From Dictyostelium discoideum (taxonomy: Eukaryota), in NCBI GenBank assembly GCA_000004695.1, contig CM000152.2:512001-576000 (forward strand): 64,000 nucleotides of DNA. The letters run 5' to 3'. Below are positions 13,688-60,943 of the stretch, in pieces; the stretch's first letter is position 1; each line of letters opens with the position of its first letter. The notes under the pieces were generated by a model. The model did not search any database. It was given only the letters and a program-made list of their open reading frames with translations, and was not told the DNA's origin. The position numbers were made by a program, and so were the translations under genes.

Positions 13688-19677
<5,990 letters not shown>

Positions 19678-23598: not shown

Positions 23599-26500
23599 TT
23601 ATTCATCACCAACATGAATTAATTGATCAATACCCAATTTCATATGATTTAATTCACGATATCTTTGTTCACAAGTTTTTTCTAAAAGATCCTTTTTAGT
23701 GATAATACCTTTGAGTTTGTTATTTTCATTTACAACAGGCATATGACGTAAACCCATTGTTCTGAATAATTGAAAAGCTTCACTAACTGCAAATTCAACG
23801 TTAACGGTGATTACAGTTAAATTCATAACATCGGAAAGATCAATCTCTTGAGAGTAATCAGCTGGATCGAAATTGAAATCATTGACCGATGGTAATTTCC
23901 AGGTTAATTTGGTGGTATATTCAATGTGAGAATAGATTGCTTCAGAGTTTGGAATGTAAACATCAGAGATACGTTCTAAAATCATTAATAATTGAGTACG
24001 TAAAATGAGACCTTTGACCAACTTCTCCTCGTCATTGTTGACCACTGGGAAACCATTGTGACGAGTTTCTTTCAAGACACGAAGATATTGCCCAAGGTGT
24101 CTTTCTCTGCCAAATAGACTGGTTTCTTTGCCATGATATGTTTACACATCATCAATTTCATCTCTTTGGATTGATCTAGTTCGAGGTATGGAATGTATTT
24201 CATTTGCATCAAAAGATCAAACAATGGATGAATGAGAGCATCGGCAACCCATTTGGCAGTCATAACTGTCAACATCAATGGTAAGAGATATTTTAGACGA
24301 TCTGTGATCTCAATGAGAATAACAGTTAAACTAATGGTAAGACGAGATACACCACCCATGAAGGCAGCTGCACCCATCACTGCGTAAATACCAGGATCAA
24401 TGCTGACCTTGTCACCCAAAATATGGTAAACCACCAAACCTACGAAACGACCATACGACGCACCAATAACAAGCATCGGTACAAGGGTACCCGTTGCAAC
24501 AGCGCAACCAGCAGTATAGGCAGCGAAAAACAAATAGAAAATACAAAACAAAAACATTGGCCACAAACCCAACCGTTCAGTATTGGTAACATTATTTGAA
24601 TTGACCTTTAGTAAATTGGTGATTGACTCCTCATAGGATGCGAAAATAAGTGTTGCCATTGGATTATACCAACCCTCCTTACAATTGAATCTCTTGAATT
24701 CACTCAACTCTTTAAGAGTCTCTGCTGGATCATATGAAACACCCGTACCATTGGTGATTGTACTATTATAGATTGAACTATTATAGAATTTACTATTATA
24801 GATTGTACCATTGGCGATTGTACTATTGTAGAATGTACCATTGATGATGGTACTATTATAGAATGCACCATTGGTTAATGTAACATCGGTGAGTGTACTA
24901 TTACCGACAGAAGGGATGAATGGTGCAGTATTTTGACAAGAGAAAAACAATGGTAAAAAGAATTGAATGCAAGTTGAGAGACCAATGATTAAAAACACCT
25001 CCAACACACGTAAACTCTTGATTTTATTGATTTTCTCACGACGAAACTCTGTAACCTTTACATTGATCCATGTGAAGAGGGCCCCACCCAAACCACCCAA
25101 AACACCAATCAAAAGGAATGGAATGATCTCGAACCAATTGTAAGACTCCTTATCACCAATACCAGTGTTGAAAATGATTAAACCTGTTAAACTACCCGAA
25201 TTGGATTGAAGTACGTTCATAGTGTAAGTGGCGACCATGCAACAAAAGAAAGCTCTCCAAGTGAGTGCAATCGACCAAAACGACGACACCTCCTCCAAAC
25301 TAAACAATGTGCCACCCAATGGGGCAGAGAAGGCTGCTGCAACACCTGCACCTGCACCACTGGTAACAAAGTCTCTCTTATCCTTATCATTTCTAAATGA
25401 TCTTAGGAATGGAATTTTAAAACCAAACTCTTTGCTCTGTGCTTGTGAAAAACCGTTACCAACAATAGCACCAATATGAATCATTGGACCCTCTGAACCA
25501 GCTTGTAAACCACTACTAACTGCCAAAACCATTGATAAAAATTTAGTCCACAATGTCTTCATCTTCAATGTATGTGGTATCTTTGTTCCATTCAAATATC
25601 CCTTCACCTCTGGTATACCCGATCCTGCTGCTGTTGGTTCATAATAAACTGCCAACAATGATGAACAAGTTGCCAATAATGTATTTAATAAAAAGTATGT
25701 TAAAAATGCTAAAAATAAATCCAATTCCAAAACTAAAAAAAAATAAAAAATATTAATATTAATATTTACATATTATTTATTATTATTATTATTTATTATT
25801 AAGTTAAATTTACTTACCTGCTTCAACAAATTTAAATTTATATTTTGTAATATTTGAAACACAAGCATGTGAGAAATATGCGATTACACCAATAAAGATA
25901 CCCATAAATAATGAAACTATCCAACGTAAAACTTCGTGATCAGAGGCTAATTTTGAAAAGTTTTTATACAACTCATTACGATGGGCTTTGTTGTAGATGG
26001 TGACGTAATCTAGACATTCATACTTTTGAATTTGTAATTTATCTTTGAACCAAACTGCACGCTCTGCTACCTCGTGTTGTTCAGCCCTACGATGATGCTG
26101 CTCACGAATATTGTCTACTGGTTTCATTGTGGTTTGGGCAATGGTCTTCCAACCCTCTTCAATGGCCTTATTGGAATGCTTCACACGTGTCTCTATCTTT
26201 TTATTGGACTCGCCAATCTTTTGTTTAATCTTTTTATTTGTCTTTCCAAAAGTTTTACTCACTTTAGCTCCAAATGAATCACCCTCCCTAATATCGTCAC
26301 TTGACCCATACAAATTCTTTGGTCTATATGTTGAATGATCTCTAACAATTGGTTGTAATATTATACCATCCTCAGTCTCCTCCTCCTCTCCCTCTTCATT
26401 CTCAATGTATGCTCTTCTTTCTTCATCATCACCATCATCATCATATGATTCTGTTAATCTTTCTTCTTCTTGAATTCTAACTTTTTTTTTACTCTTTTTT

Positions 26501-31982: not shown

Positions 31983-32040
<58 letters not shown>

Positions 32041-33240
32041 TTTAAACTTACCTGACCAAACAGTTGATGCTAATTTTGTCCATGAATTATGGTATTGTTT
32101 ACCATGAACTGAAATAAAACCACCAGCAGATACAGCAATACCTTTAGAGCCATAAAATGGTGCAATAGTATCAACCTTTGTTTTTGAACCATGGAAAATA
32201 ATATTTATATTAGCATTATAACGACATTTTGTAGTTCCCATAATGAATTTACCTTGTACTAAGATATCTTTAACATTCATTGTTAAATTTGAATCAGCAA
32301 AAATTAATTCACTTGTAGCTGGAATAACAATTCTTTGGTAAATTGCGGTTTGTGAAATTGAACATGGACTAATTAAAACTCTTTTTCCGGCTGGAATTGT
32401 AATATTTTCATTTGGTTGTGGAACGAGATTATTTGACCATGTCGATGGATTATGCCAATGGACTAAATCAGAAGCAAGGTATGGACAAGTTGATAAATCT
32501 TGTGGATCTAATGAAACGGATGCTTTTGGAATATTAATTAATTCAGAATCTTTGGTTATTAAATTTGGTGGTGCTACTACTGGTTTAGATGGAACAGTGA
32601 TCTTCATATTTTTATAGAAAATAGTGGTATCATCATAATCCATTGCTCTTGAACGATTGACTTGAAGAATTAAAGTTGAAAGACCAAGATCAACTGGAAC
32701 ACTGAAAGTAATGGTTTTACTTTTATATGTAGTTGATGAAAAATCACCGGTAAAAGTAAAAGAATACATTGGTGCTCTATAACTCCATAAAAGATAATCA
32801 ATATCACCTGGTTTGTAGAATGAAAGAGTCATATTTGAATAGGTAATACCTTGAGTCAAAACTTGGCCTAATTTGAAATCAAATGAAAATTGATAATTAG
32901 TATTGGCTTTAAGGGCTGGAGCTGATTGTTTTGCAACAATTAAAAAGTAATCTGGTGCCCATGCTGGAAGTGCAATAGAGAATTCACTTTCAACATCACT
33001 AACTGGTTGAAGGTTATTTGGGTCGGTCATGCTCCAATAGGCCATGTAATATAAATCATTACCGCCATATACAATATCAGAGGCTAAAGAAGTGGTTGGC
33101 AAAGCTGGAGATACTGGTGAATTGGAACTTGCTGGTGTTGGTCTCCAATTTGAATCTGTTGGACATGTATCTGATTTAACACTGCATATTGCTAAAAAAA
33201 GAATAAAAATCTTTAAAATTTTATTATTTATATTTTTCAT
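29492..33240 (-). CDS. Secreted G8-domain / right-handed beta-helix (PbH1) protein resembling CEMIP/TMEM2/PKHD1-type proteins, with at least 6 exons. The reading frame is interrupted by an in-frame TAA at ~30521
   Basis: Exon 1 (33240..~32052) starts with a signal peptide MKNINNKILKIFILFLAICSVKSD, then a G8-like block (…WSNNLVPQPNENITIPAGKRVLIS…IYQRIVIPATSELIFADSNLTMNVKDILVQGKFIMG…), ending at a GTAAGT donor. Exon 2 (~31936..31644; GDRIIYVQDNINWEVGQQVLITTS…EVALLSRRIIFQGN…GGHVLVSGEGQ) ends at GTAAAT. Exon 3 (~31570..31208) has RYPLHFH…NGHCYYLEDGVEM…NLAAFVHT. Exons 4 and 5 are 30888..31118 and 30521..30814. The last exon(s), …29492, continue in the same frame after the TAA (…AIVDG*TGNILSKSQSYNRQGFQFYD…). 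Several N-glycosylation sequons are present. Confidence 0.7.
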
Positions 33241-34701: not shown

Positions 34702-36036
34702 TTATAGTTTTATTTGGGGTAGATTTTTATCTACCTTTTGAAGTTTCTGGTTTATTTTGTCTTCTAACTGATCTTTACTTTGTTCATTGTGTTGTTGGTC
34801 TTGTGTGTTTGTGGGGTTTTTTGATTTATTGATTTGTTTTAGAATTTCCTTGTTGAAGTTGTCTATATCTTCATCCATTTTTGTTTTTATGCTTTTTTGT
34901 CCATATTCACCCAATTTTGGTTTGACTGGTGTTTTGTTGGTCTTGTTTGTTTTGTCTTGTTGTTTCTTTTTTGGTGTGTTTAACAATTTACTTGGTGAAT
35001 CGATAATTTTCGATGGTGTACCATAGGTTGGGCTGAAACTCATGATATGTTTTATTGGAGAGGAGAAGAACCATTGATTTGAAGGGATTGAAAGTGGGAA
35101 TTCTATTTTTCTTATTGCATCAGTGTTTGGGCTGGTGAAGTCGAAGATATCATTTGCCTCTCTAAGTTTTTCTTCCGTTGTTAGTCCCTTTGTTTCGCCG
35201 TGTTGTTTTATTGGTGTATTGTATGGAGATGGTGGTTCGATAGGTTTTTCTGATTTTGTTTTAATTTCTTGATTGTTTATCGATTGTGTATTGATCTCAT
35301 TCTCTATTCTTGTTAGTTCATCTACGTTTTCTAGTGATGCTTCTATTACCTTTTGAGCTGTATCATCTAGGGCCATAAATGTTTTATCATTAGATGAGGA
35401 TGTGATTGGTGGGATAATGATTGTTCTTTTTCCTTGTTTTGGTATTTGTTCTGATGTAGATTGTGGTTGTTGTTCATCTGATTGTTTTTTATTTTTGTTT
35501 TCTTCTTGATTTTCTGGTAATGAGGTTTGATCTCTCCATCCTTTGTTGGAGTGTCCAATTAATGTTAGATTGTCTAGTTCAATGATAGTGTCAAATTCTT
35601 CTACGACTCTTTTCACTGTTTTGATAATTAGAGTTTCGCCTTTAATTTCTGATTTAATTAGTTTACATCCTTCATTTTCTATTACCCATTCTATTTCTGT
35701 GAGTGATTTATACCAATCAAAATCTGTATACATATTTTTTGGTCTTAAAGTGGTTATAAATTGTCCTTTTAATTCTGCATCAAACATATTTACAAAATAG
35801 ATTACTGTACTAATACTGTCTGTGAGAATTTTGAATGTATTATTACTTTTGATTAAAACATCTTTTTTGTCCAAACTTTTTTCTAAATCTTTTTTTATTT
35901 TATCGTCTGGTTCGTGATTGATGTTTATGACGTATTTGAATTGTTTTTTTTTTAATTGAGTTTTATCCACAATTTCGCTTATTTTTTGTAGGCATTTGTG
36001 TTGCTTAATATTTGTGGTGTTGTTTGTGATTTTCAT
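34702..36036 (-). CDS. TRE5-A ORF1 (retrotransposon ORF1 protein, 444 aa)
   Basis: Intact 444-aa ORF inside the element. Its first 63 codons are duplicated verbatim in the downstream B-module copy (ORF 34103..34303, MKITNNTTNIKQHKCLQKISEIVDKTQLKKKQFKYVININHEPDDKIKKDLEKSLDKKDVLIK). Charged low-complexity composition and a size of ~51 kDa fit the published DRE ORF1. Confidence 0.75.
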   Translation of the reverse strand: MKITNNTTNIKQHKCLQKISEIVDKTQLKKKQFKYVININHEPDDKIKKDLEKSLDKKDVLIKSNNTFKILTDSISTVIYFVNMFDAELKGQFITTLRPKNMYTDFDWYKSLTEIEWVIENEGCKLIKSEIKGETLIIKTVKRVVEEFDTIIELDNLTLIGHSNKGWRDQTSLPENQEENKNKKQSDEQQPQSTSEQIPKQGKRTIIIPPITSSSNDKTFMALDDTAQKVIEASLENVDELTRIENEINTQSINNQEIKTKSEKPIEPPSPYNTPIKQHGETKGLTTEEKLREANDIFDFTSPNTDAIRKIEFPLSIPSNQWFFSSPIKHIMSFSPTYGTPSKIIDSPSKLLNTPKKKQQDKTNKTNKTPVKPKLGEYGQKSIKTKMDEDIDNFNKEILKQINKSKNPTNTQDQQHNEQSKDQLEDKINQKLQKVDKNLPQIKL

Positions 36037-36112: not shown

Positions 36113-36149
<37 letters not shown>

Positions 36150-36158
<9 letters not shown>

Positions 36159-37017
36159 TCTTTTTTATATGAAAAATGAAATAATCAAAAAAAGAGATTG
36201 TTGTTGTTGTTTGTTTTTTTCGATCTGATTATTTTTTGCTTTTTTTTTGAAAATTTTGCTACGCAAAATTCTCAAAACGAAACAAATAATAAATTACAAT
36301 AAAGTAAAAAGATGGCTTTTTAAAATAGTTTATTTATTTATTTATTTGTTTTTTAAGTCTTTTTTATATGAAAAATGAAATAATCAAAAAAAGAGATTGT
36401 TGTTGTTGTTTGTTTTTTTCGATCTGATTATTTTTTGCTTTTTTTTTGAAAATTTTGCTACGCAAAATTCTCAAAACGAAACAAATAATAAATTACAATA
36501 AAGTAAAAAGATGGCTTTTTAAAATAGTTTATTTATTTATTTATTTGTTTTTTAAGTCTTTTTTATATGAAAAATGAAATAATCAAAAAAAGAGATTGTT
36601 GTTGTTGTTTGTTTTTTTCGATCTGATTATTTTTTGCTTTTTTTTTGAAAATTTTGCTACGCAAAATTCTCAAAACGAAACAAATAATAAATTACAATAA
36701 AGTAAAAAGATGGCTTTTTAAAATAGTTTATTTATTTATTTATTTGTTTTTTAAGTCTTTTTTATATGAAAAATGAAATAATCAAAAAAAGAGATTGTTG
36801 TTGTTGTTTGTTTTTTTCGATCTGATTATTTTTTGCTTTTTTTTTGAAAATTTTGCTACGCAAAATTCTCAAAACGAAACAAATAATAAATTACAATAAA
36901 GTAAAAAGATGGCTTTTTAAAATAGTTTATTTATTTATTTATTTGTTTTTTAAGTCTTTTTTATATGAAAAATGAAATAATCAAAAAAAGAGATTGTTGT
37001 TGTTGTTTGTTTTTTTT
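36150..37017. repeat. Tandem array of ~199-bp TRE5-A A-modules (4 full units plus a 5'-truncated unit next to the tRNA)
   Basis: The motif taagtcttttttatatgaaaaatgaaataatc recurs at 36155, 36354, 36553, 36752 and 36951, an exact 199-bp period. The units are nearly identical. The outermost unit is truncated at ~37017. Confidence 0.9.
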
Positions 37018-37065: not shown

Positions 37066-37137
37066 GCCGTGATAGTATAGTGGTAGTACATCAGATTGTG
37101 GCTCTGTTGACCCTGGTTCGATTCCAGGTCGCGGCAC
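37066..37137 (+). tRNA. tRNA-His (anticodon GUG)
   Basis: GCCGTGATAGTATAGTGGTAGTACATCAGATTGTGGCTCTGTTGACCCTGGTTCGATTCCAGGTCGCGGCA is a clear cloverleaf. It has a 7-bp acceptor stem, an A-box TATAGTGGT in the D-arm, an anticodon loop T-TGTGG-C containing GTG, and a T-arm with B-box GGTTCGATTCC. It closely matches eukaryotic tRNA-His-GTG (GCCGTGAT-GTATAGTGGT-AGTAC…). A poly-T Pol III terminator begins at 37138. Confidence 0.9.
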
Positions 37138-40138: not shown

Positions 40139-42805
<2,667 letters not shown>

Positions 42806-42944: not shown

Positions 42945-43789
42945 ATGAAAGAAATAGATGATATTGTGGGACAATTGTGTGATAAAATTATTAATGAATT
43001 TCAAAAACATGATAAAAATGAAAAGTTTTTAGTATGTTTGGCAGGACCTCCAGGATCAGGAAAATCAACAATTTCAGAATCTTTAGTTAAAGAATTAAAT
43101 AAAAAATTAAAAGAAAATAATAGTAATAGTAATAATAATAATAATAATAATTCATCATCACCAGCTGTTATAATACCAATGGATGGTTATCATTTAGATA
43201 ATTGTATTTTAAAAGAAAGAGATTTATTAAATAGAAAAGGTTCACCACAAACTTTTGATATAGTTGGTTTCATTCATATGCTAAATAGATTAAAAGATCA
43301 AGGTGTAAATAATAATAATGAAAATGAAAATGAAAATAATGATATAAATAAATTATCAATTTATATACCAACATTTGATAGAGATATAGACTTATCTAAA
43401 AATGCTTCTTTTACTGTTACAACTTCAAACAGTTTATTAATTGTTGAAGGTTTGTTAATTTTTTTTTTTTTTTTTTTTTTTTTCAATTCTTATTTTAAAA
43501 AATTAATAATAATAATAACAATAATAATAAATTTTATAAAATAGGAAATTATTTATTATTAAATCAAGAACCTTGGTGTAAATTAAAAAAATTATTTAAT
43601 ATTTGTATATATGTTCAAGTAGAATTACCATGTTTAGAGAAAAGATTAATAAAAAGATGGACCACCCACAATCATAATCTTGAAGCAGCAACAACAAGAG
43701 CACTTTCAAATGATATTCCAAATGCTATATTAGTTTCTAATAATTCAAATTTAGAAAATGTTTTGGTAATTGAAAATAATGATAAATAA
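42945..43789 (+). CDS. P-loop nucleoside/sugar kinase of the phosphoribulokinase/uridine-kinase (PRK) family, two exons (42945..~43449, ~43545..43789)
   Basis: Walker A motif FLVCLAGPPGSGKSTISESL; the family motifs IIPMDGYHLD and IYIPTFDR. A GTTTGT donor after …LLIVEG joins in frame to GNYLLLNQEPWCKLKKLFNICIYVQVELPCLEKRLIKRWTTHNHNLEAATTRALSNDIPNAILVSNNSNLENVLVIENNDK*. Similar to yeast/plant PRK-family ATP-dependent kinases. Confidence 0.75.
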
Positions 43790-46487
43790 ATAAATTAATA
43801 ATAAATAAAAAATAAAAATAAAAAAAAAAAAAAAAACAAAATTAATAAAATTTTAATAATTAATAATATAAAAATAAAAAAAAAAAAAAAATTGATATCA
43901 CATATTAAAAAAAAAAAAAAATAAAATAAAATAATAATAATAATAAAGTGGTAATAATAATATCAAAATAAAAAAAAAAAAAAAAAAAAAAATATTAATA
44001 TAAAAAAAATATATAATAATTGATGATGCAATCTACTATGATATCTTTATTTAGTTAACTTATCAAAAATTAAAAAGGTAATATTTGACAATGTCAATGT
44101 TACAAAAAATATAAATAGTTTGAAAAAAAAAAAAAAAAAAAAAAAAAACTACTGAAAATGGTGATGGTGTAGGTTTAAATCAATTATTTTTTTTTTATAT
44201 TTTTTATTTTTAATTATACAATACTTGCACAGATTATTTGATTTTAGCGATACAGTAAATTTCAAAAAAAATTTTATGAAAATGCTGGGGTTAAAATTTA
44301 ATAATTACAAATTAATAAAATTACCCCCACTAACCTCACACGTTTTTCACTTGCTCCACTTGATCCCATTCAAATAATATTTTTTTACAAATATAAAAAT
44401 AAACTGTTGAAAACGGATAAATTGTTTGAAAAAATATATAATAACTAAAAATAACAACAATAATTTATTTTACAAATAGTCGATAATTTCATTACATCAT
44501 CTAAAAATAATTTTTTTTTTCAAACCATGATCAATCATGGTAAAACAAATTGGTATTTGTTATTATTATATAAAAATAAATTAATAAAATAGTAATAAGA
44601 AGTAAATAAATTTTTTTTTTTTTTTTTTATTAAATTATTTTTATTATTATTTTTTTATTTTTTATTTTTTTAACTTTACAAAGCATATAAACTGAAAATA
44701 AATAAATTATTTAAACATATTTAACTCATTTAACTTATTTTTATTTTTTTATTTTACGATAAATTTTGGATAGCAATAAAAAAAAAAAATTTGTTATTAA
44801 AAATTTGAGGTTAAATTGTTATTAATTTCATTAAAAAAAATTAATTCAAAAAAAAAAAAATATGAGTTGTTCAATTTCATGGTGTCAAAATATTAAAAAA
44901 CATACATTAACAATATTTTAATTAACCCACAAAAACAAATTTCCAAACACAATATTAATATTCAAACTCACTTAATTATAACCCCCATTCGCTATTTTAT
45001 CAAATTCACTATTGTAATAAACTATATAAATATTATCCCCCAAATTAATTATTTGAATTGATTTTATTTTTAATTATTTTTTTATTTTTTTATTTTTTTT
45101 TTTTTTATTTAAACAGTTACACCCCACAATTTTAATTATTAATAGGCTGATTTTGTGGGTAAAAAGAGTGGTATTTTTTTGGGTGATTGTTTTAATAATC
45201 AAATTTACAAATTTACAGTAGATGATGTTTGAAATTAAATAAATTAAAAGTGTATGTTTTATTTAATTTTTTTTTTTTTTTTTTATATTGATTTTTATAT
45301 TGATTTTTTATTATTGTTAATTGTACTTTTTAATCTCTTGTTATCATCAAACTCTACACAAATAGGTTATTTACAAAATCTATTAAAATTATTCAAATAT
45401 AGGTGTGGGTTTGTTGTGTGTGAATATATTAATATAAATTTGTGATTTTGTTATTGTTTTTAAACATTACTGTTGTTTTTTTTTTTTATTTATGTGGTTT
45501 AGAGAGTTTGAGATAGTGAGGTTTTTTAATTATGATTTCATATACAATTGAAAAAATAAAAAATATTTAATAATATGATTATGCATTATTTGATGTTATG
45601 GTTGTAAACTCGTGAGGGGGTTGGTGATTTTATAGTTGTAAAAAATTTTGCAATAAAATATATTATGTAAACTGATACTTTATACTATTGGAAAAGAAAA
45701 AAAAGAAATTAATTATACATAACACCACAAACAATTTCTATTTTCAAACACACACATGTGATATTTTTAATTTTTCATAAAAATACCTTGTGTACATATA
45801 AACAGATAGTACAATAATGAAAAAAAAGTTATCTCACTCTCTATTTAAAATAATTAACACACTTTCACCAAAATTATACACCACCACCATAAATAATAAA
45901 AATAAAAAATAGAATAAAAAAAATAACAATAATGATAATAAATAATATAATGAAACATTGGGGTTGTATAAAAAAACAATTTAAAAAAATACATACATAC
46001 ACATATTATTATTGTTAAAAAAATGTATATTTTATATTGCGTAATGGTTTTGCGGTCTTTTTAAGAATATCACTAATCAAATATGATCGACAATCCAATT
46101 ATTTTTAATTTACCATACTTTATTTTTTTTAAAATTAATTTTAATTTTATTTTATTTTTATTTTTATTTTTTTGTTTATATTTTTTTTTTTTTTGTGTAA
46201 ATATTTTTTGTATAAATATTTGATTATTTTAATTTTATTTTCATCAATTCAAAAATTAACTTTTAAATTGGAATATATTTAAATAATTTAATATTTCAAT
46301 ATATTTATTTATTTTAAATAAATAAATAAAAAAAAAAAAAAAAAAAAAAAAAAAATAATATTTATTTATTAAAAAAAAAAAAAAATCATTTAAAAAAAAA
46401 AAAAAAAAAAAAAAACAAAAAAAAAAAAAGTAGGAAAAGGAATTAGTAAAAACTAAAATCATTAGTTTAAAAATTATAACGTTGAAA

Positions 46488-46805
46488 ATGAAAATTTCTA
46501 TATTTATTTTATTACTATTTATTAGTAGTATGGTAATAATATCAGTTAATGGTATGTTTATTTTTTTTTTTTTTTTTTTCTTTATTAAATAATTGGAAAT
46601 TCTAATAATTTTTTTTTTTTTTTATTTCTTTTTTTTTTTTTAATATTTAATAGCGGAAACTGAAACCATACAAACCAATACAGCATGTGATTGTGATGAT
46701 GATTGTGATGATGGAAATAGATGGTCAACAGATATGTGTTCTGCAGGTTTACTTTTTGGAAAATATTGCACTCATACTCAAATTTGTTGTGATGATGAAA
46801 GTAAA

Positions 46806-46840
<35 letters not shown>

Positions 46841-49800
46841 CCTAAACAGTTTTTTTTTTTTTTTTTTTTTTTTCAAAACAGTTTTTTTTTTTTTTTTTTC
46901 ACTCTCTAATTTTTTAAAAAAAAAAACATATAATTTTAAACTAATAAATAAACAACATACAATTTTATACTATAAATTTTATATTATATTTTATAGATGC
47001 ATGCACAATTGATAGTTGTTCAAAAACTTCAGGTTGTGTTCATACCCCAATAAATGTGGATGATAAAAATCCATGTACAATTGATTCATGTATCAAAGGT
47101 TTTATTTCACATACTCAAATCTCTTGTGATGATAAGAATGCTTGTACAATCGATAGTTGTGACTGTTCATCAGGTTGTCAAAATAAACCAATGTCCTGTG
47201 ATGATAATAATCCATGTACCGTAGATTCTTGCAATAATTCAACCGGTTGTCGTAATACCCCAATCAGTGTAGATGATAATAATCCATGCACAATAGATTC
47301 ATGTTCAAAATCAACTGGTGTAGTTCACATTCCAATCAATGTCGACGATCTTAACCCATGTACAATTGATGCATGTACCAAAGAAGGTGGTGTTACTCAT
47401 ACTCCAGTCAATGTTGATGATAATAACAAATGTACCACTGATTCATGTTCGCTATTTACAGGTATAACTCACACTGAAATCTGTTGTGATGATAATAATG
47501 CCTGTACAGATGATTCCTGCTCACCATCAACTGGTTGCGTAAATACCCCAATTTCTTGTGATGACAAAAACCCATGCACCGTAGACTCTTGCAACAATTC
47601 AACTGGTTGCTGTTATACCCCAATCAATGTTGATGACAATAATCCATGTACCATCGATGCCTGTACTAAATCAACAGGTGTCACCCACACTCCAATCAAT
47701 GTCGATGATAATAACCAATGTACAACTGATTCATGTACCAAAGAAGGTGGTGTAACTCATACTCCAGTCAATACTGATGATAACAATCCATGTACTGTTG
47801 ACTCCTGCTCACCATTTACAGGTGTTTCTCACACTCCAATCAATGTTGATGATAATAACAAATGTACAATTGATGCATGTACCAAAGAAGGTGGTGTAAC
47901 TCATACTCCAGTCAACACTGATGATAACAATGCCTGTACCCTTGATTCTTGTTCACCATTAACTGGTGTCACTCATACCCCAATAAACTGTGACGATAAA
48001 AAGGCCTGTACTGTAGATTCATGTTCAAATTCAACTGGTTGCGTAAATACTCCAATTTCCTGTGATGATAATAATCCATGTACTGTTGATACCTGTGATG
48101 ACTCAACCGGTTGTTGCAATACTCCAATCAATGTTGATGATAATAATCCATGTACCGTAGATGCCTGTACCAAATCAACAGGTGTCACTCATACCCCAGT
48201 AAATGTAGATGATAATAACAAATGTACAATTGATGCATGTACCAAAGAAGGTGGTGTAACTCATACTCCAGTCAATACTGATGATAACAATGCCTGTACT
48301 CTTGATAACTGTTCACCATTAACCGGTGTCACTCATACCCCAATAAATTGTGATGATAAAAAGGCCTGTACTGTCGACTCATGTTCAAACTCAACTGGTT
48401 GCGTAAATACTCCAATTTCCTGTGATGATAATAATCCATGTACTGTTGATTCTTGTGATGACATAACTGGTTGTTGCAATACTCCAATCAATGTTGATGA
48501 TAATAATCCATGTACCGTCGATGCCTGTACCAAATCAACAGGTGTCACTCATACCCCAGTAAATGTAGATGATAATAACAAATGTACAATTGATGCATGT
48601 ACCAAAGAAGGTGGTGTAACTCATACTCCAGTCAATACTGATGATAACAATGCCTGTACACTTGATTCCTGTTCACCATCAACTGGTGTTTCCCACACCC
48701 CAATTAACTGTGATGATAGTAATCCATGTACCGTAGACTCATGTTCAAATTCAACCGGTTGTGTAAACACTCCAGTCAATGTTGATGATAATAATCCATG
48801 TACTGTAGATGCTTGTACCAAATCAACAGGTGTCACACATACCCCAGTAAATGTAGATGATAACAACAAATGTACAATTGATGCATGTACCAAAGAAGGT
48901 GGTGTAACTCATACTCCAGTCAACACTGATGATAACAATGCCTGTACAATTGATTCTTGTTCACCATCAACCGGTATTTCCCACACCCCAATCAATTGTG
49001 ATGATAAAAAGGCCTGTACAGTTGATTCATGTTCAAATTCAACTGGTTGTGTAAATACTCCAATTTCCTGTGACGATAATAATCCATGTACTGTTGATTC
49101 TTGCGATGACTTAACTGGTTGTTGCAATACTCCAATCAATGTTGATGATAATAATCCATGTACCATCGATGCCTGTACTAAATCAACAGGTGTTACTCAT
49201 ACCCCAGTCAATGTAGATGATAATAACAAATGTACAATTGATACATGTACCAAAGAAGGTGGTGTAACTCATACTCCAGTCAATACTGATGATAACAATG
49301 CCTGTACCCTTGATTCCTGCTCACCATCAACTGGTGTTTCCCATACCCCAATAAACTGTGATGATAATAATAAATGTACTGTAGATTCATGTTCAAACTC
49401 AACTGGTTGTGTAAATACTCCAATTAACTGTGACGATAGTAATCCATGTACCGTAGACTCATGCAATAATTCAACTGGTTGTGTAAACACTCCAGTCAAT
49501 GTTGATGATAATAATCCATGTACCGTCGATGCCTGTACCAAATCAACAGGTGTTACTCATACCCCAGTCAATGTAGATGATAACAACAAATGTACAATTG
49601 ATGCATGTACCAAAGAAGGTGGTGTAACTCATACCCCAGTCAATACTGATGATAACAATGCCTGTACAATTGATGCATGTACAAAAGAAGGTGGTGTAAC
49701 TCATACTCCAGTCAATACTGATGATAACAATGCTTGTACCCTTGACTCCTGTTCACCATCAACTGGCGTTTCCCACACCCCAATTAACTGTGATGATAGT

Positions 49801-51918
49801 AATCCATGTACCGTAGACTCATGTTCAAATTCAACCGGTTGTTGCAACACTCCAATCAATGTTGATGATAATAATCCATGTACTGTAGATTCATGTACCA
49901 AACCAACAGGTGTCACTCATACCCCAGTCAATGTAGATGATAACAACAAATGTACAATTGATGCATGTACCAAAGAAGGTGGTGTAACTCATACTCCAGT
50001 CAATACTGATGATAACAATGCATGTACCCTTGATTCCTGTTCACCATCAACTGGTATTTCCCACGCTCCAATTAACTGTGATGATAGTAATCCATGTACC
50101 ATAGATTCATGCAATAATTCAACTGGTTGTTGCAACACTCCAATCAATGTTGATGATAATAATCCATGTACCGTAGATTCATGTACTAAATCAGGTGGTG
50201 TCACTCATACTCCAGTCAATGTCGATGATAATAACAAATGTACCACTGATGCATGTACTAAAGAAGGTGGTGTAACTCATACTCCAATCTCTTGTGATGA
50301 TAATAATGCCTGTACAATTGATTCATGTTCAAACTCAACTGGTTGTGTAAACACTCCAATTAGCTGTGATGATAGAAACCCATGTACTGTTGATACATGT
50401 ACAAAAGAAAAAGGTTGTCAACATTCCCCAATCGATACTGATGATAGTAATAAATGTACCATTGATGCTTGTTCTTCAACCACTGGTGTAACTCATACTT
50501 CAATTAACTGTGATGATAACAATGCTTGTACATTCGATTCATGTTCAAACTCAACTGGTTGTGTCAGTACTCCAATTTCATGTGATGATAAAAATCCATG
50601 TACCTTGGATTCTTGTGACAAAAAGACAGGTTGTTGTAATACTCCAATTAATGTTGATGATAATGACAAATGTACCACTGATTCATGTACCAAAGAAGGT
50701 GGTGTAACTCATACTCCAATCTCTTGTGACGATAACAATGCCTGTACAACTGATTCATGTTCAAAATCAACTGGTTGTGTAAATAAACCAATTTCTTGTG
50801 ATGATAGTAATCCATGTACCGTAGACTCATGTTCAAATTCAACCGGTTGTTGCAACACTCCAATCAATGTTGATGATAATAATCCATGTACCACTGACTC
50901 ATGTACCAAATCAGGTGGTGTAACTCATACTCCAGTCAATGTTGATGATAATAACAAATGTACCACAGATTCATGTACCAAAGAAGGTGGTATAACTCAT
51001 ACTCCAATCTCTTGTGATGATAATAATCCATGTACACTTGACTCATGTTCACCAACAACTGGTTGTGTAAATAAACCAATGAATGTTGATGATAATGATG
51101 CATGTACAACCGATACATGTAATAAAGATGGTACCATCACTCATACACCAATCAATACAGATGATAATAACAAATGTACATTAGATGCTTGTTCACCAAA
51201 GACTGGTGTAACTCATACACCAATCAATTGTGATGATGGAAACAAATGTACAATCAATAGTTGTTCACCATCAGTTGGTTGTATCTCAACACCAGTTTCA
51301 TGTCCAAAACCAAAAGATAAATGTTCAATCTCTCAATGTGATTCAGCCAAAGGTTGCATCGAAGTCCCAATGAATTGTACCTCTGATAAATGTAATGAAG
51401 CATCATGTTGTGATGGTGTTTGTACCTCAAAACCAATTAGCTGTCCAAAACCAAAGAATAAGTGTCAAGTTGCAAAATGTGATTTAATTAAAGGTTGTAC
51501 CGTCTCAAATGTAGTATGTGATGATGGTAATGCTTGTACCGAAGATTCATGTTGTTCAGACACTGGTAAATGTCAATTCGAACCAATCAAACTTCCAAAG
51601 AATAAAAACAAATGTATCATTTCAAAATGTGATCCAATTAAAGGTACAATCACCAACAGTACCGTAAACTGTGAATGTGATGACCTTTGTAACATTGGTG
51701 AATGTTGTGAAGATACAGGAAAATGTAATTACAGACAAAAAGATTGTGATGATAATAATCCAAAAACAGCTGATAGTTGCGATTCCAAGACTGGTAAATG
51801 TATTAACAAACCATATAATGTTATCACAAGTGGTTCTAATTTAATCTCTGGTTTAATTGGTGGTCTCATTGGTGGTGGTACAGGAGGTAAAGGTGATTGC
51901 AAAACTTGTAAAAATTAA
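46488..51918 (+). CDS. Secreted giant cysteine-rich protein made of about 65 tandem 24-aa 'Dictyostelium repeats' (Dicty_CTDC type, as in EcmA/EcmB and prespore/extracellular-matrix proteins) plus a divergent C-terminal Cys-rich region. Three exons (46488..~46551, ~46654..46800, ~46997..51918), about 1710 aa
   Basis: Exon 1 encodes the signal peptide MKISIFILLLFISSMVIISVN, ending at a GTATGT donor. Exon 2 encodes AETETIQTNTACDCDDDCDDGNRWSTDMCSAGLLFGKYCTHTQICCDDE, ending at GTAAAA. Exon 3 begins NACTIDSCSKTSGCVHTPINVDDKNPCTIDSC… and runs for 4.9 kb. Unit consensus: [NS][VCT]DD[NK]N[PKA]CT[VIL]D[SA]C[ST]x[ST]TG[VC][VCT][HN]TP[IV]. Units cycle through 4-5 subtypes, giving 96-120-aa super-repeats. 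Confidence 0.85.
47056..51250 (+). repeat. Coding tandem-repeat array: 72-bp units organised in near-identical 288-bp and 360-bp higher-order repeats
   Basis: For example 47890-48190 vs 48250-48550 differ at only a handful of positions. Antisense phantom ORFs of identical sequence recur at 360/288/432-bp spacings (47973, 48333, 48621, 48909, 49269, 49701, 49989). Confidence 0.85.
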
Positions 51919-54463: not shown

Positions 54464-56419
54464 TTAGATTTTATTTTCTTTTTGTAATTTTTGTAAATGT
54501 AATTTAATATTTCCCAATGCCATAAATGATAAAGTTGGTTCAAGACTACCATAAACGATATCTAAGATTTCAGTGAGTGAAGTTTTACCAGATTTATAAG
54601 CATTTAAGATTTCTTCTTCACGAAGTAAACGATGCTTGATGTAATTATTTAAGAGGACGATTGGATCGAAATTTAAAGGACCATGAGCAGGAATTGCAAC
54701 CTTTGGACAAAGATAATTGATCATACCATGAGTGCTATCTATATATTCAACCATATCACCTGTATGAAAATCCAATACTGAACTACCGAAACCAACAATA
54801 TGATCACCAGCAATCAAAGTTTTACTATTATTCTCAAAAAGACACAAAGAATCATCAGTGTGACCAGGTGTTGAAACTATATGAAAAATTCTATCACCAC
54901 CATTACCAATGTAAAGCTTTTCATTTGTATGACAATCCAATTGTTTAATTTCAGTTGGAGTTTTAATTTCATTTAAAAAGCTATCAACACTCTCTTTATC
55001 CTTTAATTGAAAACCAGAAACTTGTACCTTTTTTAAACCACTTTCAATATTCTTTAAAGTTTTCTCATGAGCATAAATTGTTGCCTCTGGGAAATGTTTC
55101 TCTAAAATACCAATACCTTCCCAATGATCTTTATGATTATGTGTAATGAAAATTGATATATTTTTACCTTCTAATATTTTTTTATTTTCTTCTTCTTCTT
55201 CTTCTTCTTGTTGTTGTTGTTCTTCTTCTCTTTGTTCATTATTAACATTATTTGAATTTTCATCATTTTTAATTTCAATATTATTTTTAATAAACTTTTT
55301 TAAATATTTTAATAATTTCTTTTCTATTATATTACACATATGAATAGAACCTTCTTTATTTGCACCAGGATCAACTAAAAGTATATGAGTATCATTTTGA
55401 GAGATGATTAGATTGGTTGAATTGAATGGATGTAAAGTGTTTGAACGTACTGGTATACTTTCAATATGAGGAGCGAACTCCAATGGTATAGTGATACCAA
55501 GGTTATTTTTATCTTCACTGATGGTCAATAGGTCATTGTTTGTCTTTGAGAATAGTGATAACATCTTTAGGAGATATTGTGTTTCTGGTGTAATGAATTT
55601 ACGATGTGAATTGAATTCCCTCAAGAATTCCATTGGTTCCTTCCATTCCATTGAAATCTCCAATGTTTTCTCTTTGGTACCACCTGATGATGCTGGATCC
55701 GTTGGTGATATTGAATCCACTAAAATAGTCTCCAATTTATTCTTATTTATACAATTACTATCTTTAACAATTATTAAATAATAATCGAAATAACATCTCT
55801 TCACTTGTTCCAAATAATATGGTGTTACCAATGATCCTAAATAATAAATATTATCACGTTTAAATGAATTTTTATTATTAAATACTTTTTCAATTTTATC
55901 TAATTGTAATTGATTTGAATAAAATTTATTATTTAATAATAATTTTTCATTATTACAACAGTTTTTATTTGATAATGAATCTTTTTGTTGTAATTGTTGT
56001 TGTTGTTGTTGTTGTTGTTGCTCATGTAATTGAGTTGGTTCTGGTGATGTTAATGATGGGAAACCAAAGAAACTATGTGGCACAGCTTTATATAATTTAT
56101 TTATATTATTTTTAACCATTAAAACTTTATTATTATTTTCATTGTAAAATAATAAACTAGAGTATGTATTCATTTTATTATTATTATTATTATTATAGGT
56201 ATTATTATTTTTATTATATATTTTATTATTATGACAACTTTCACTATAATATCTTTTTAAAATATCTGTTTTAGGTTGTTGTTTTTGTATTTGTTGAGAA
56301 TTTAATTTAATAATATTGTTTTTTCTAAATATTTTATTACTATTATTTCCTATACTATTACAAATAGAGGTATTTATTTGTACTGTTGTCGAATAAAAAA
56401 AAGAAAAAACCTTTATCAT
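54464..56419 (-). CDS. Metallo-beta-lactamase-fold protein (LACTB2/MBLAC-like hydrolase) with a long N/Q-rich N-terminal extension, 651 aa
   Basis: C-terminal 270 aa carry the MBL motifs THNHKDHWEG (HxHxDH), GHTDDS, and …AGDHIVGFGSS…PAHGP. There is an acidic/E-rich insertion (EEEQQQQEEEEEEEN). N-terminal 350 aa are low complexity. Single ORF. Confidence 0.75.
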   Translation of the reverse strand: MIKVFSFFYSTTVQINTSICNSIGNNSNKIFRKNNIIKLNSQQIQKQQPKTDILKRYYSESCHNNKIYNKNNNTYNNNNNNKMNTYSSLLFYNENNNKVLMVKNNINKLYKAVPHSFFGFPSLTSPEPTQLHEQQQQQQQQQLQQKDSLSNKNCCNNEKLLLNNKFYSNQLQLDKIEKVFNNKNSFKRDNIYYLGSLVTPYYLEQVKRCYFDYYLIIVKDSNCINKNKLETILVDSISPTDPASSGGTKEKTLEISMEWKEPMEFLREFNSHRKFITPETQYLLKMLSLFSKTNNDLLTISEDKNNLGITIPLEFAPHIESIPVRSNTLHPFNSTNLIISQNDTHILLVDPGANKEGSIHMCNIIEKKLLKYLKKFIKNNIEIKNDENSNNVNNEQREEEQQQQEEEEEEENKKILEGKNISIFITHNHKDHWEGIGILEKHFPEATIYAHEKTLKNIESGLKKVQVSGFQLKDKESVDSFLNEIKTPTEIKQLDCHTNEKLYIGNGGDRIFHIVSTPGHTDDSLCLFENNSKTLIAGDHIVGFGSSVLDFHTGDMVEYIDSTHGMINYLCPKVAIPAHGPLNFDPIVLLNNYIKHRLLREEEILNAYKSGKTSLTEILDIVYGSLEPTLSFMALGNIKLHLQKLQKENKI

Positions 56420-56793: not shown

Positions 56794-56914
56794 TTATTTT
56801 AAATTTAAAATTTTATGAAAATCTTTTTGTTCAAATAAATCATTATTGGTACCTAAATTTAAATTATTATTATTATTATTATTATTATTATCATTATTAT
56901 TATTATTATTTTTG

Positions 56915-56958
<44 letters not shown>

Positions 56959-58217
56959 TTTGTCATTATTATTATTACTATTATAATTAAATTTTAAAGC
57001 AGTTTGACCAAAAGTATTATCACCAAAAACATAAATATCATTATTGATTGATTGAGCTAATGTATGTTTAAAACCTGAAGTAATTTTTTTAATATTTGAT
57101 AATGATTGAATTTTCTTTGGTGAATAATGATTCTCATTTGTACCATGACCTAAAGAACCACCATCATTCCAACCCCAAGAATAAACGGAACCATCGGTGG
57201 TGATATAGAATGAATTTGCATGATCACCAGCGAAAATCGATTTAATTTTATTACCAGCAGCATTATCTCCAGTGGATTTAATTCTTTTTGGTATGTAATG
57301 ATTCAAAGTGTCATTCTCGCCATGACCTAATTGACCGAATTCGCCGTATCCAAAAGTGTAGATTTCATTATCATTGGTCAAAAACATTGAATGATAACCT
57401 CCACATGCTATATCCACTATTCTGCTCTCATTATTATTAAGTGTGAACGTTGTTATCTTTTTTGGTGTATAAATATTCTCTTTATCATTCGATCCTACAC
57501 CATGACCCAATGCACCAAAATAACCATTGCCCCAACTATACAATGAACCATCATTACCCAACAATAAATTATGGTCACTACCTGAACAAATCTTTTTAAA
57601 ATCTTTAAATATTGGATCGGTCTCTTTTAAAACTTTAATTGGTTTTGAGTAATATTCATCCTCTGATGGTGACGATGGTGATGATGATTTATCCTTTACC
57701 CTCTCTCTACCACCTAATTGATTCTTATGATTTCTACCCCATCCATAGATACCATCATCTTTAGTTACAACTAAACTATGTTCATATCCACTAACTATTG
57801 ATATAATATTATCATTGAATTTTTCAATTTTATATACCTTTTCATTATTATTATTATTATCGTCGTCATCATCAATGCTTCTACCAATACCCAATACTCC
57901 ATATTTTGATTTACCAATTGAATATAATTGATTATCATCTTTAGTTTGTAATATGATAAAATTACCACCTAAAGAAACATTACTAATCTTTTTATCGTTA
58001 TTAATTTTAATTTTGTTTGGTACTTCTGTGACTAAATTCGAATATAAACCCCAATGATAAAATTCATCGTTTTCATTGATTATACCTGAATGATAGGCAT
58101 TTGCAAATATATCCTTTGCCTTCAACCCATTCAATTTTATTGGTAACTCAGTTTCACTTATAAATTCAAATTCTTCTGTACCATCATCAAAATAAACTAT
58201 TTCATTATCATCTTCGT

Positions 58218-58249
<32 letters not shown>

Positions 58250-58338
58250 GGATCTACTATACAATTTACTTTATGATAAAAGTTAATTATTAAAAACAAT
58301 GTAAATATAAAATAAATAAAATTATTATTGTTTTTCAT
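56794..58338 (-). CDS. RCC1-repeat (regulator of chromosome condensation-like beta-propeller) protein with an N-terminal signal peptide, 514 aa
   Basis: Signal-like N-terminus MKNNNNFIYFIFTLFLIINFYHKVNC, then six or seven RCC1 blades with the signature YxWGxNxxGQLG (YSIGKSKYGVLGIG, YGWGRNHKNQLGG, YSWGNGYFGALGHG, YTFGYGEFGQLGHG, YSWGWNDGGSLGHG, YVFGDNTFGQT). Poly-T near the N-terminus and poly-N at the C-terminus. Confidence 0.8.
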
Positions 58339-59284: not shown

Positions 59285-60943
59285 TTAAATTTTTACAGAT
59301 ACTAAATCACTTTCTTGTAATTTTTTATCTTTATTAAAAGTTGAAGGAATATCAATGGTTGACCAAGATTGATGAACTTGTGGTATAATGAAAGGACGTA
59401 ATTTAGCTAAACGAGTACCTTCAGTTGGGAGTTCAGAGATATCATCTATCGATGGCACAACTTCATAGCCAATTAAGACATTCTCTCTTTCTAATCTTGC
59501 TAAAGTTGCATCAATGATTGGTTGTAATTGTTGAGTTGGTTTTTGTAATGATTGCTGAGTCAATGTTATTGAAACGCAAGGTCTAATTAAAAATAGTGTT
59601 TGTTTCAATTGATGTTGTGCTTTCTTACAAGTGGCGATTGATTCACCATATTTGTGAGTTGCATTCTGTTGAAAAGCTTGTTGGTTCCATGCTAACGATT
59701 GATATAATGATACTTTGTATTGTAAGAAATTTACAAACTTTTCCAAACGATTCTCAACCAACTTCTCCTCGGTGAAATGTGAGATCAACATATCCATTGC
59801 CTCTTTATAAATATTTGCTGTATCAACTGCCAATTTAACAATTGGTTGAATTGTATTCTTTTTATATGCACGTCCAATCGTCAACTCTTGTGCTTGTCCA
59901 ATACATTGTAAATATAATGATCTTAATAAAACATCATTAAAATCTGTTGATGATTTATCACTACCTTTTAAAATTTTACCTGCATTATCATCAACAACAT
60001 CATCATCACCACCACCATCTTTTTCATCTTCACCAGATTCTGTTTTTTCTTCCTTTTTATCCTCTTCTTCTTTTTTGGAGGATGATGATAAATTTAATCT
60101 TAATTTACAAAGATAATCAAAAATACCAGCAGATTTTAAAAGAAAATCATAAACTTTTTGACGATCTTCTTCAGGTAAACCATCAGTTGGTGAACAACGA
60201 TTTGAAACGATATATTCTGAATAACCTAAATACCAAATACCAAGATTAAATAAAATACTCATATATTCAACCAATGTATCTGAGGAAGTGATTGATCTAT
60301 CTGAACCAAATACATTTGTCCAACTGAATCTTAAATTCTTTCTAATTGCATCACTACCTTTATTATTATTATTCTTTACTTTTTCATTATTAAATTTCTC
60401 TAATTTATCATCACCCTCTTCAGAGTTATACTCTTCATCATTATCTCTTGGTTGTTCATTTAATTGAAGTTTTTCAAAATTTGATACTGGAGTTGCTGTT
60501 GCTGCTGTTGTTGCTGCTGCTATATTATCAGTAGTAATTGTTGGTTGATATACTTTTGAACCAATTAACCCACCTAATAATGAACAATAAGTTTCAACTG
60601 ATTTTAATAATTCTGCTGTATCAACTATTTTATATTATTATTAATAATAATAAAAAAATTAATATAAAGTAGTTTATTTATTTATTCATATTATTCATTC
60701 ATTCATTTATTTATTTATTAATTTATTCTTACTATTTGTTAAATCTCTTGCTTTGGTTGAAAAGAAGAAATTATCGATATTATCAGAAGCATCACTTATA
60801 TCTTTAGCCAAACTAACAATGAATGGATTTGATGCTTCTTTACATAAATCAACTAATTTGCTTTTATAGTTTAATTTTGATCTCATCTTTAAACGATGAA
60901 TATAAAAGCAATAATTATCGAAAACTGGTAATGTTCCTTCCAT
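59285..60943 (-). CDS. BROX-like Bro1-domain protein, two exons (60943..~60716 and ~60620..59285)
   Basis: Exon 1 (MEGTLPVFDNYCFYIHRL…ARDLTN) ends at a GTAAGA donor and joins via a TAG acceptor to IDTAELLKSVETYCSLLGGLIG…LVEYMSILFNLGIWYLGYSEYIV…EEDRQKVYDFLLKSAGIFDYLCK…LYLQCIGQAQELTIGRAYKKN…VDTANIYKEAMD. These segments parallel human BROX ([25 protein letters not shown]…[21 protein letters not shown]…[22 protein letters not shown]…YETANFYQKA). No C-terminal CAAX box. Confidence 0.75.

Follow-up and report, generated by a model that had tools for sequence, protein, structure and literature searches.

The gene at positions 46488–51918 (+ strand) of a 64,000-nucleotide stretch of Dictyostelium discoideum DNA (contig CM000152.2 of assembly GCA_000004695.1, positions 512,001 to 576,000 of the forward strand; this whole stretch is 'the window', and its numbering is used throughout) is almost certainly ecmA (DDB_G0277853), which encodes extracellular matrix protein A and is the classical prestalk marker inducible by differentiation-inducing factor 1 (DIF-1). 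From the late 1980s on, ecmA has served as the standard prestalk marker, and its product has counted as a characterised matrix protein. A first-pass annotation, made from the letters of the window, had rightly recognised the family to which the encoded protein belongs, and had presented it as going beyond the known EcmA and EcmB; it is EcmA itself, and the gene is thus already known. As a discovery this carries little weight, and the value of the analysis is corrective: the locus should be relabelled as ecmA, measured identities take the place of the '>97%' and 'very recent' that had been attached to its repeats, and concern about collapse of the array during assembly can be lowered.

Some features of the protein and its gene may nonetheless interest those who work on the dictyostelid matrix, or on bacterial proteins built from the same repeat (Pfam family Dicty_CTDC, PF00526). 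These are the covariation of Cys2 and Cys19, which defines two classes of repeat unit; the high-confidence prediction of one hairpin per unit, in a protein with no solved relative by sequence; and the uneven homogenisation of the super-repeat (formed of unit subtypes here lettered A to E), in which the A-B part varies far less than the C-D part.

Identity of the gene

The name ecmA belongs to DDB_G0277853 (PMC4406040), and the identity was tested with published ecmA primers for quantitative reverse-transcription PCR, taken from the supplements of two independent papers and compared with the whole window. One pair (CCAATTAGCTGTCCAAAACC and GCAATCACCTTTACCTCCTG; PMC12711200) matches at 51433–51452 (+) and 51881–51900 (−), the other (CCGTAAACTGTGAATGTGATGACC and GTCTTGGAATCGCAACTATCAGC; PMC5923282) at 51662–51685 (+) and 51769–51791 (−). 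All four match without a mismatch and only once each in the 64 kb, where no match would be expected by chance, and both pairs are convergent (51433–51900 and 51662–51791) in the non-repetitive 3' part of the gene, the sites 51433–51452, 51662–51685 and 51769–51791 falling within its C-terminal degenerate module (Table 1). The ecmB primers listed in the same table as ecmA primers served as a negative control; they gave no match in the window even with up to three mismatches allowed, and ecmB is thereby ruled out as the identity of the locus. EcmB (DDB_G0269132), the paralogous stalk-tube protein whose gene is reportedly a recent duplicate of ecmA, has in common with EcmA the repeat family and membership of the class regulated by DIF-1, MybE and DimB (PMC4406040, PMC2845816); the failure of its primers to match sets the present locus apart from it. 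A neighbouring tandem paralogue is likewise ruled out, no Dicty_CTDC repeats having been found in any of the ten large flanking open reading frames (ORFs) scanned with Pfam.

The region upstream can be compared with what is known of ecmA control. The ecmA promoter extends over about 1.6 kb (PMC4406040), and the gene is rapidly induced by DIF-1 and controlled through MybE and DimB (PMC2845816). In the corresponding region of the window (Table 1) we found a single match to the MybE consensus (AACAGTT, at 45112–45118) and six matches to the DimB consensus AMACMWCA in about 500 bp (45223–45729), compared with 50 in the whole window, which amounts to about 15 times the window-wide density; all these matches are situated 0.76–1.38 kb upstream of the ATG. 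Both consensus sequences come from a study that placed sites of both kinds in the distal (ecmO) part of the promoter and published two MybE sites there (PMC2845816), as against the one match found here. The motifs are short and degenerate, and we take their occurrence, where the distal part of the ecmA promoter has been described, as supportive only.

In its primer sites, signal peptide and 24-aa Cys-rich repeats, and as far as such short motifs allow in the MybE and DimB matches upstream, the gene agrees with ecmA (DDB_G0277853), and no difference was found. Several considerations pull the other way. The exact 1710-aa protein is absent from a collection of 15 billion protein sequences, leaving no EcmA record to align, and among the proteins retrieved by a full-length homology search there was none from a dictyostelid, though any dictyostelid orthologue would have outranked the matches that it did find. 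With no alignable EcmA in the databases, the identification therefore depends on the primers, the architecture and the promoter motifs, and these motifs are short, AACWGTT (the MybE consensus) not being enriched across the 64-kb window. Agreement in length with reference EcmA (ST430, clone pDd63), which probably also has 1710 aa, is a presumed one, and a literature search for that length brought up nothing of relevance. That the gene is not ecmA, and is instead another, paralogous member of the EcmA/EcmB family, is nevertheless barely credible: a wider family of proteins consisting largely of Dicty_CTDC repeats does exist in dictyostelids (PMC4406040), and the databases offered no EcmA record for alignment, but four ecmA primers from two laboratories match perfectly and convergently in the non-repetitive 3' part of the gene, and the ecmB primers do not match.

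Gene structure and protein architecture

The limits of the ecmA locus are exactly the ATG and the stop codon of a three-exon gene for a protein of 1710 aa. Most of it is a single ORF of 1620 codons on the + strand (47056–51918); when every GT..AG combination upstream of this ORF was tried with the ATG at 46488 as the start, a single one kept the frame open, and it gives the exons listed in Table 1. Its junction between exons 2 and 3 restores a canonical repeat unit (CCDDE/NACTIDSC, the slash marking the junction), and the splice model is for this reason independently backed. Intron 2 contains a 32-bp unit, T23CCAAAACAG, in 2.6 copies of 96% identity, and within this intron the MybE consensus AACAGTT occurs twice, at 46845 and 46877, as candidate sites.

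Table 1. Features of the ecmA locus and other genes in the window
Feature	Position	Strand	Remarks
Hybrid histidine kinase with receiver domain	13688–17170	−	Pfam
CLC chloride channel	24072–25730	−	Pfam
G8-domain protein	32032–33240	−	Pfam
Small P-loop protein	42945–43544	+	Pfam
ecmA upstream regulatory region, about 1.6 kb	44890–46487	+	CA-rich; matches to MybE and DimB consensus sequences
ecmA exon 1	46488–46551	+	Start codon, signal peptide MKISIFILLLFISSMVIISVN and first base of the A22 codon; top hydrophobic 19-mer
ecmA intron 1	46552–46653	+	GTATGT...TAATAG; AT-rich
ecmA exon 2	46654–46800	+	Degenerate N-terminal Cys/Asp-rich stretch ACDCDDDCDDGNRW..., onset of repeat unit 1
Array of 60 Dicty_CTDC units of 24 aa (72 bp)	46785–51297	+	aa 66–1504; intron 2 is the sole interruption
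ecmA intron 2	46801–46996	+	GTAAAA...TTATAG; poly-T-rich; 32-bp repeat inside
ecmA exon 3	46997–51918	+	Remaining coding sequence; stop codon 51916–51918
Higher-order-repeat core, units 13–46	47842–50289	+	BCDE ABCDE ABCD ABCDE ABCDD' AB(C/B)CD ABCD AB
Longest exact internal repeat of exon 3, 140 bp	48160–48299	+	End of A unit, whole B unit, start of C unit; second copy 48520–48659
Chimeric unit 38 (C/B)	49642–49713	+	First 26 nt as C unit u33; other 46 nt as B units save one base
C-terminal degenerate Cys-rich module	51298–51816	+	About seven divergent units, CPKPKDKC..., CECDDLCNIGECC..., to ...CINKPY
Gly-rich tail, 33 aa	51817–51915	+	NVITSGSNLISGLIGGLIGGGTGGKGDCKTCKN; holds ecmA reverse primer site 51881–51900 (−)
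Metallo-beta-lactamase-fold protein	54464–56419	−	Pfam
RCC1-repeat protein	56794–58338	−	Pfam
BRO1-domain protein	59285–60274	−	Pfam

Against a threshold for membership of Dicty_CTDC (the gathering score) of 27 bits, the whole 1710-aa protein scores 1729.7 bits in 62 stretches, its first 448 aa 477.6 bits in 16 stretches, and its last 247 aa 91.8 bits in five (E = 2.1e-26); the C-terminal module, which had been described as distinct, is thus still recognised as degenerate Dicty_CTDC. Sixty units are contiguous at aa 66–1504 (one of them has 23 aa), and they are accompanied by one degenerate unit at the N-terminal side and about seven at the C-terminal side, so that an earlier estimate of about 65 repeats was a fair one. 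No variation is seen at D3, D4, C8, T9 and C13 in the 59 full-length units, and D11, and likewise G18, occurs in 58 of the 59; the period is strictly 24 aa, with the DD...CT.D.C....G....P positions of the family, and is 72 bp in the DNA.

The signal peptide is MKISIFILLLFISSMVIISVNA, followed by ETE (the boundary being VNA/E), and includes a hydrophobic 19-mer with a Kyte–Doolittle value of 2.51. Neither a transmembrane segment nor a glycosylphosphatidylinositol (GPI) signal was found in the protein: outside the signal peptide the best 19-mer (VITSGSNLISGLIGGLIGG) reaches 1.29, and the C-terminus is polar, its last ten residues being GKGDCKTCKN. These two properties rule out a GPI-anchored or transmembrane protein. 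The description originally given, of a giant secreted Cys-rich protein of Dictyostelium 24-aa repeats with a Gly-rich tail and no GPI or transmembrane anchor, is in all these respects sound, and the Pfam scan that had been suggested along with it gave the result reported above.

Two classes of repeat unit and their predicted fold

In a published summary, each repeat is said to have five cysteines (PMC4210663); in contrast, 35 of the 59 full-length units here have only two, the invariant Cys8 and Cys13. Positions 2 and 19 covary perfectly over the 59 units, both being Cys in 24 and neither in 35, with no mixed cases. Subtypes A, B and C make up the 2-Cys class, in which these positions are hydrophobic (the first being V or T, the second V or I), and subtypes D and E make up the class with four or five cysteines (the 24 units with Cys2 and Cys19); the two classes alternate within the super-repeat. 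From this pattern we infer that Cys2 and Cys19 probably form a disulfide within the unit, in whose place the 2-Cys class would have a hydrophobic contact; Cys8 and Cys13 would presumably be bonded as well. It counts against this pairing that it is deduced from covariation, and not from coordinates or chemistry.

Eight units (those of subtype E and some of subtype D) have adjacent cysteines ('CC') at positions 19 and 20, and the extra Cys of these units could serve in cross-linking. The mature protein has 215 cysteines: this is an odd number, and therefore at least one Cys must lack a partner in its own chain, as would suit cross-linking between molecules.

AlphaFold2 was given a 120-aa ABCDE block, with an alignment consisting of 54 in-register 120-aa windows of the same protein, and returned a model with a predicted local distance difference test (pLDDT) score of 96.2, in which every 24-aa unit contributes exactly two strands. 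A single beta-hairpin is thus predicted with confidence for each unit, the units following one another like beads on a rod. A sequence search of the PDB with the same block gave only chance matches to TAZ domains (E about 0.1). By structure, the best match of the predicted disulfide-rich beta-hairpin rod in a Foldseek search of the PDB was to the Cys-rich region of the heavy chain of the Gal/GalNAc lectin of Entamoeba histolytica (9gjf_H), likewise an amoebozoan protein; the match is weak (E = 2.5e-3, template-modelling score 0.32, 17% identity, root-mean-square deviation 13 Å) and no relationship is detectable by sequence, and the likeness is offered as a lead only.

EcmA may be pictured as a rod, secreted and without an anchor, of some 68 predicted disulfide-stapled hairpins, in which the putative Cys2–Cys19 disulfide would be exchanged for a hydrophobic contact in the V-type units. 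By published accounts, prestalk cells transcribe the gene from its promoter of about 1.6 kb, under DIF-1 control exerted through MybE and DimB, and the secreted protein is built into the cellulose-containing slime sheath and the stalk tube, where extensive disulfide bonding in the matrix gives rigidity and tensile strength; the sequence and the predicted model agree with these accounts. Such a role is ascribed to EcmA and EcmB in the summary mentioned above, which speaks of matrix rigidity through extensive disulfide bridges and of the tensile strength of the sheath (PMC4210663, citing Morrison et al. 1994).

Higher-order repeats and their history

Tandem Repeats Finder detects two periods over positions 47199–51170, one of 72 bp with 54.5 copies and one of 360 bp with 11 copies. 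When the units are classified by subtype, the array reads .........ABCBCDEABCDEABCDABCDEABCDDAB.CDABCDAB........AB...., in which five subtypes follow each other in fixed order as ABCDE and ABCD super-repeats. DNA identity between units peaks at lags of 4, 5, 9, 10, 14, 15 and 19 units (0.75 at 4, 0.82 at 5, 0.79 at 9, 0.82 at 14 and 0.84 at 19, as against 0.65–0.71 elsewhere). The first-pass annotation had described both the five subtypes and their arrangement in 4-unit and 5-unit super-repeats, and unit classification, lag peaks and the 360-bp period confirm it on these points. Its further statement, that the super-repeats are more than 97% identical in DNA, is true of one 288-bp window, which is off-register (D-E-A-B, 48019 compared with 48379; 97.2%), but does not hold more widely: the best full 360-bp window reaches 95.8%, and ABCD blocks compared in register are 85.8–95.8% identical. 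Between some B units there is no difference at all (100% identity).

How old are these duplications? The 4–14% by which ABCD blocks differ is some 50–180 times the species-wide nucleotide diversity of D. discoideum, which is 0.08% (PMC2895654), and the block duplications must therefore be old rather than very recent. The codon differences between blocks, with about two synonymous to each nonsynonymous change, agree with purifying selection at the protein level. Divergence is, moreover, far from even along the super-repeat: within the same six blocks, the proportion of same-amino-acid codons that differ is 3.9% for B units, 13.0% for A units, 22.6% for C units and 24.8% for D units. Units that were duplicated together should have diverged alike at synonymous positions, and so the A-B part has either been homogenised later, by conversion of short tracts, or been constrained at the nucleotide level. 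This unevenness suggests that the blocks were duplicated long ago and that short tracts of the A-B part were homogenised afterwards; the possibility that the low synonymous divergence of A and B units reflects nucleotide-level constraint, and not conversion, tells against that history.

The array also contains a more direct trace of its past. Unit 38, whose first part is that of a C unit and whose remainder is that of the B units (Table 1), is on the evidence of its sequence a recombinant joint, the fossil of an out-of-register exchange, and its chimeric nature explains the odd block AB(C/B)CD. Read in this way, past unequal exchange is indeed what shaped the array, as had originally been supposed. 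The claim of very recent higher-order homogenisation thus survives in part, in the C/B chimera and in the far greater homogeneity of A-B than of C-D; its 'very recent' does not survive the 4–14% difference between blocks, or the 23–25% synonymous difference of C and D units, when these are set against a species diversity of 0.08%.

It might be supposed, nevertheless, as it was in the first-pass annotation, that unequal crossing-over of whole blocks is homogenising the super-repeats at present, in which case the array would be very young and its copy number would vary among strains. There is a genuine periodicity of 4 and 5 units, one 288-bp window does reach 97.2%, some B units are indistinguishable from each other, and the chimeric unit proves that out-of-register exchange occurred in the past. 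We think continuing whole-block exchange unlikely, however, because in-register ABCD blocks are only 85.8–95.8% identical, with C and D units within them differing at 23–25% of same-amino-acid codons, and because at a species diversity of 0.08% (PMC2895654) the block duplications must far predate extant variation. High identity is, furthermore, limited to some 70–140 bp around the B unit, which conversion of short tracts fits better than exchange of whole blocks. We therefore prefer a history in which unequal exchange would have duplicated blocks long ago and so laid down the ABCDE/ABCD order, and the A-B part would have been homogenised later by short-tract conversion, with purifying selection probably acting on the protein throughout.

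A more speculative extension of this history, about which we are doubtful, is that the A-B part is perhaps still being actively homogenised by short-tract conversion while C-D-E drifts, and that out-of-register exchange may still give rise, in wild strains, to alleles varying in unit number and in the ratio of 2-Cys to 4/5-Cys units. If this were true, the density of disulfide cross-links, and hence the mechanics of the sheath and stalk tube, would vary heritably among strains. Among the papers listed by literature searches, none brings ecmA together with higher-order repeats, with concerted evolution or with length polymorphism.

Reliability of the assembled array

Tandem arrays such as this one (4.3 kb of 72-bp units with a 360-bp periodicity) can mislead short-read assemblers, and it has to be asked whether the array is an artefact, collapsed or expanded during assembly, so that the order and number of its units are not those of the real gene. 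This is quite improbable, since the frame stays open through all 1710 codons, none of the core units is truncated, every block has its own private differences, and the longest exact repeat (140 bp) is shorter than a Sanger read and very much shorter than long reads; the length of the protein would, moreover, be that of reference EcmA, presumed to be 1710 aa. With a longest exact repeat of that size, and many differences specific to single blocks, reads of at least Sanger length should be able to resolve the array, and the risk that the ecmA array has been collapsed would seem, from its sequence, to be modest.

The repeat family outside dictyostelids

The full-length homology search with EcmA yielded 2673 proteins at E <= 1e-20 among 8000 candidates scored. 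They are bacterial and metagenomic proteins, with a few transcripts from Physarum or other organisms, and none exceeds 55% identity; the best local identities (54–55%) are in alignments covering 18–25% of the query. Where the matches have a named source, it is mostly a metagenome-assembled genome of Myxococcota or other Deltaproteobacteria, and many others have sorting domains of the type IX secretion system (T9SS). The 'Dictyostelium' repeat PF00526 is thus very abundant outside dictyostelids. The proteins of Myxococcota, of T9SS-sorted Bacteroidota and of Physarum (as transcripts) have the same 24-aa repeat as EcmA and differ from it in what the repeats are joined to, namely T9SS sorting domains, PKD-like domains, LTD domains and peptidases; none of them is an orthologue.

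Other features of the window

The genes flanking ecmA are ordinary and unrelated to it. Pfam assigned those listed at the two ends of Table 1, and gave no match for the ORFs at 40139–42805 (+) and 17254–19677 (−). Taken in 1-kb bins, the G+C content of the window ranges from 12 to 38%, the coding islands having some 30–38%; strong AT-richness is typical of Dictyostelium.

Finally, we draw attention to a second tandem array, in which a 199-bp unit is present in 4.5 copies of 99% identity (36130–37016). It adjoins a 444-aa ORF at 34702–36036 (−), for which Pfam gave no match, and on its other side it ends 50 bp upstream of a gene for tRNA-His(GTG) at 37066–37137 (+). The arrangement looks like that of a putative TRE5-A (DRE) element, a non-long-terminal-repeat retrotransposon that targets tRNA genes, with multiplied A-modules.

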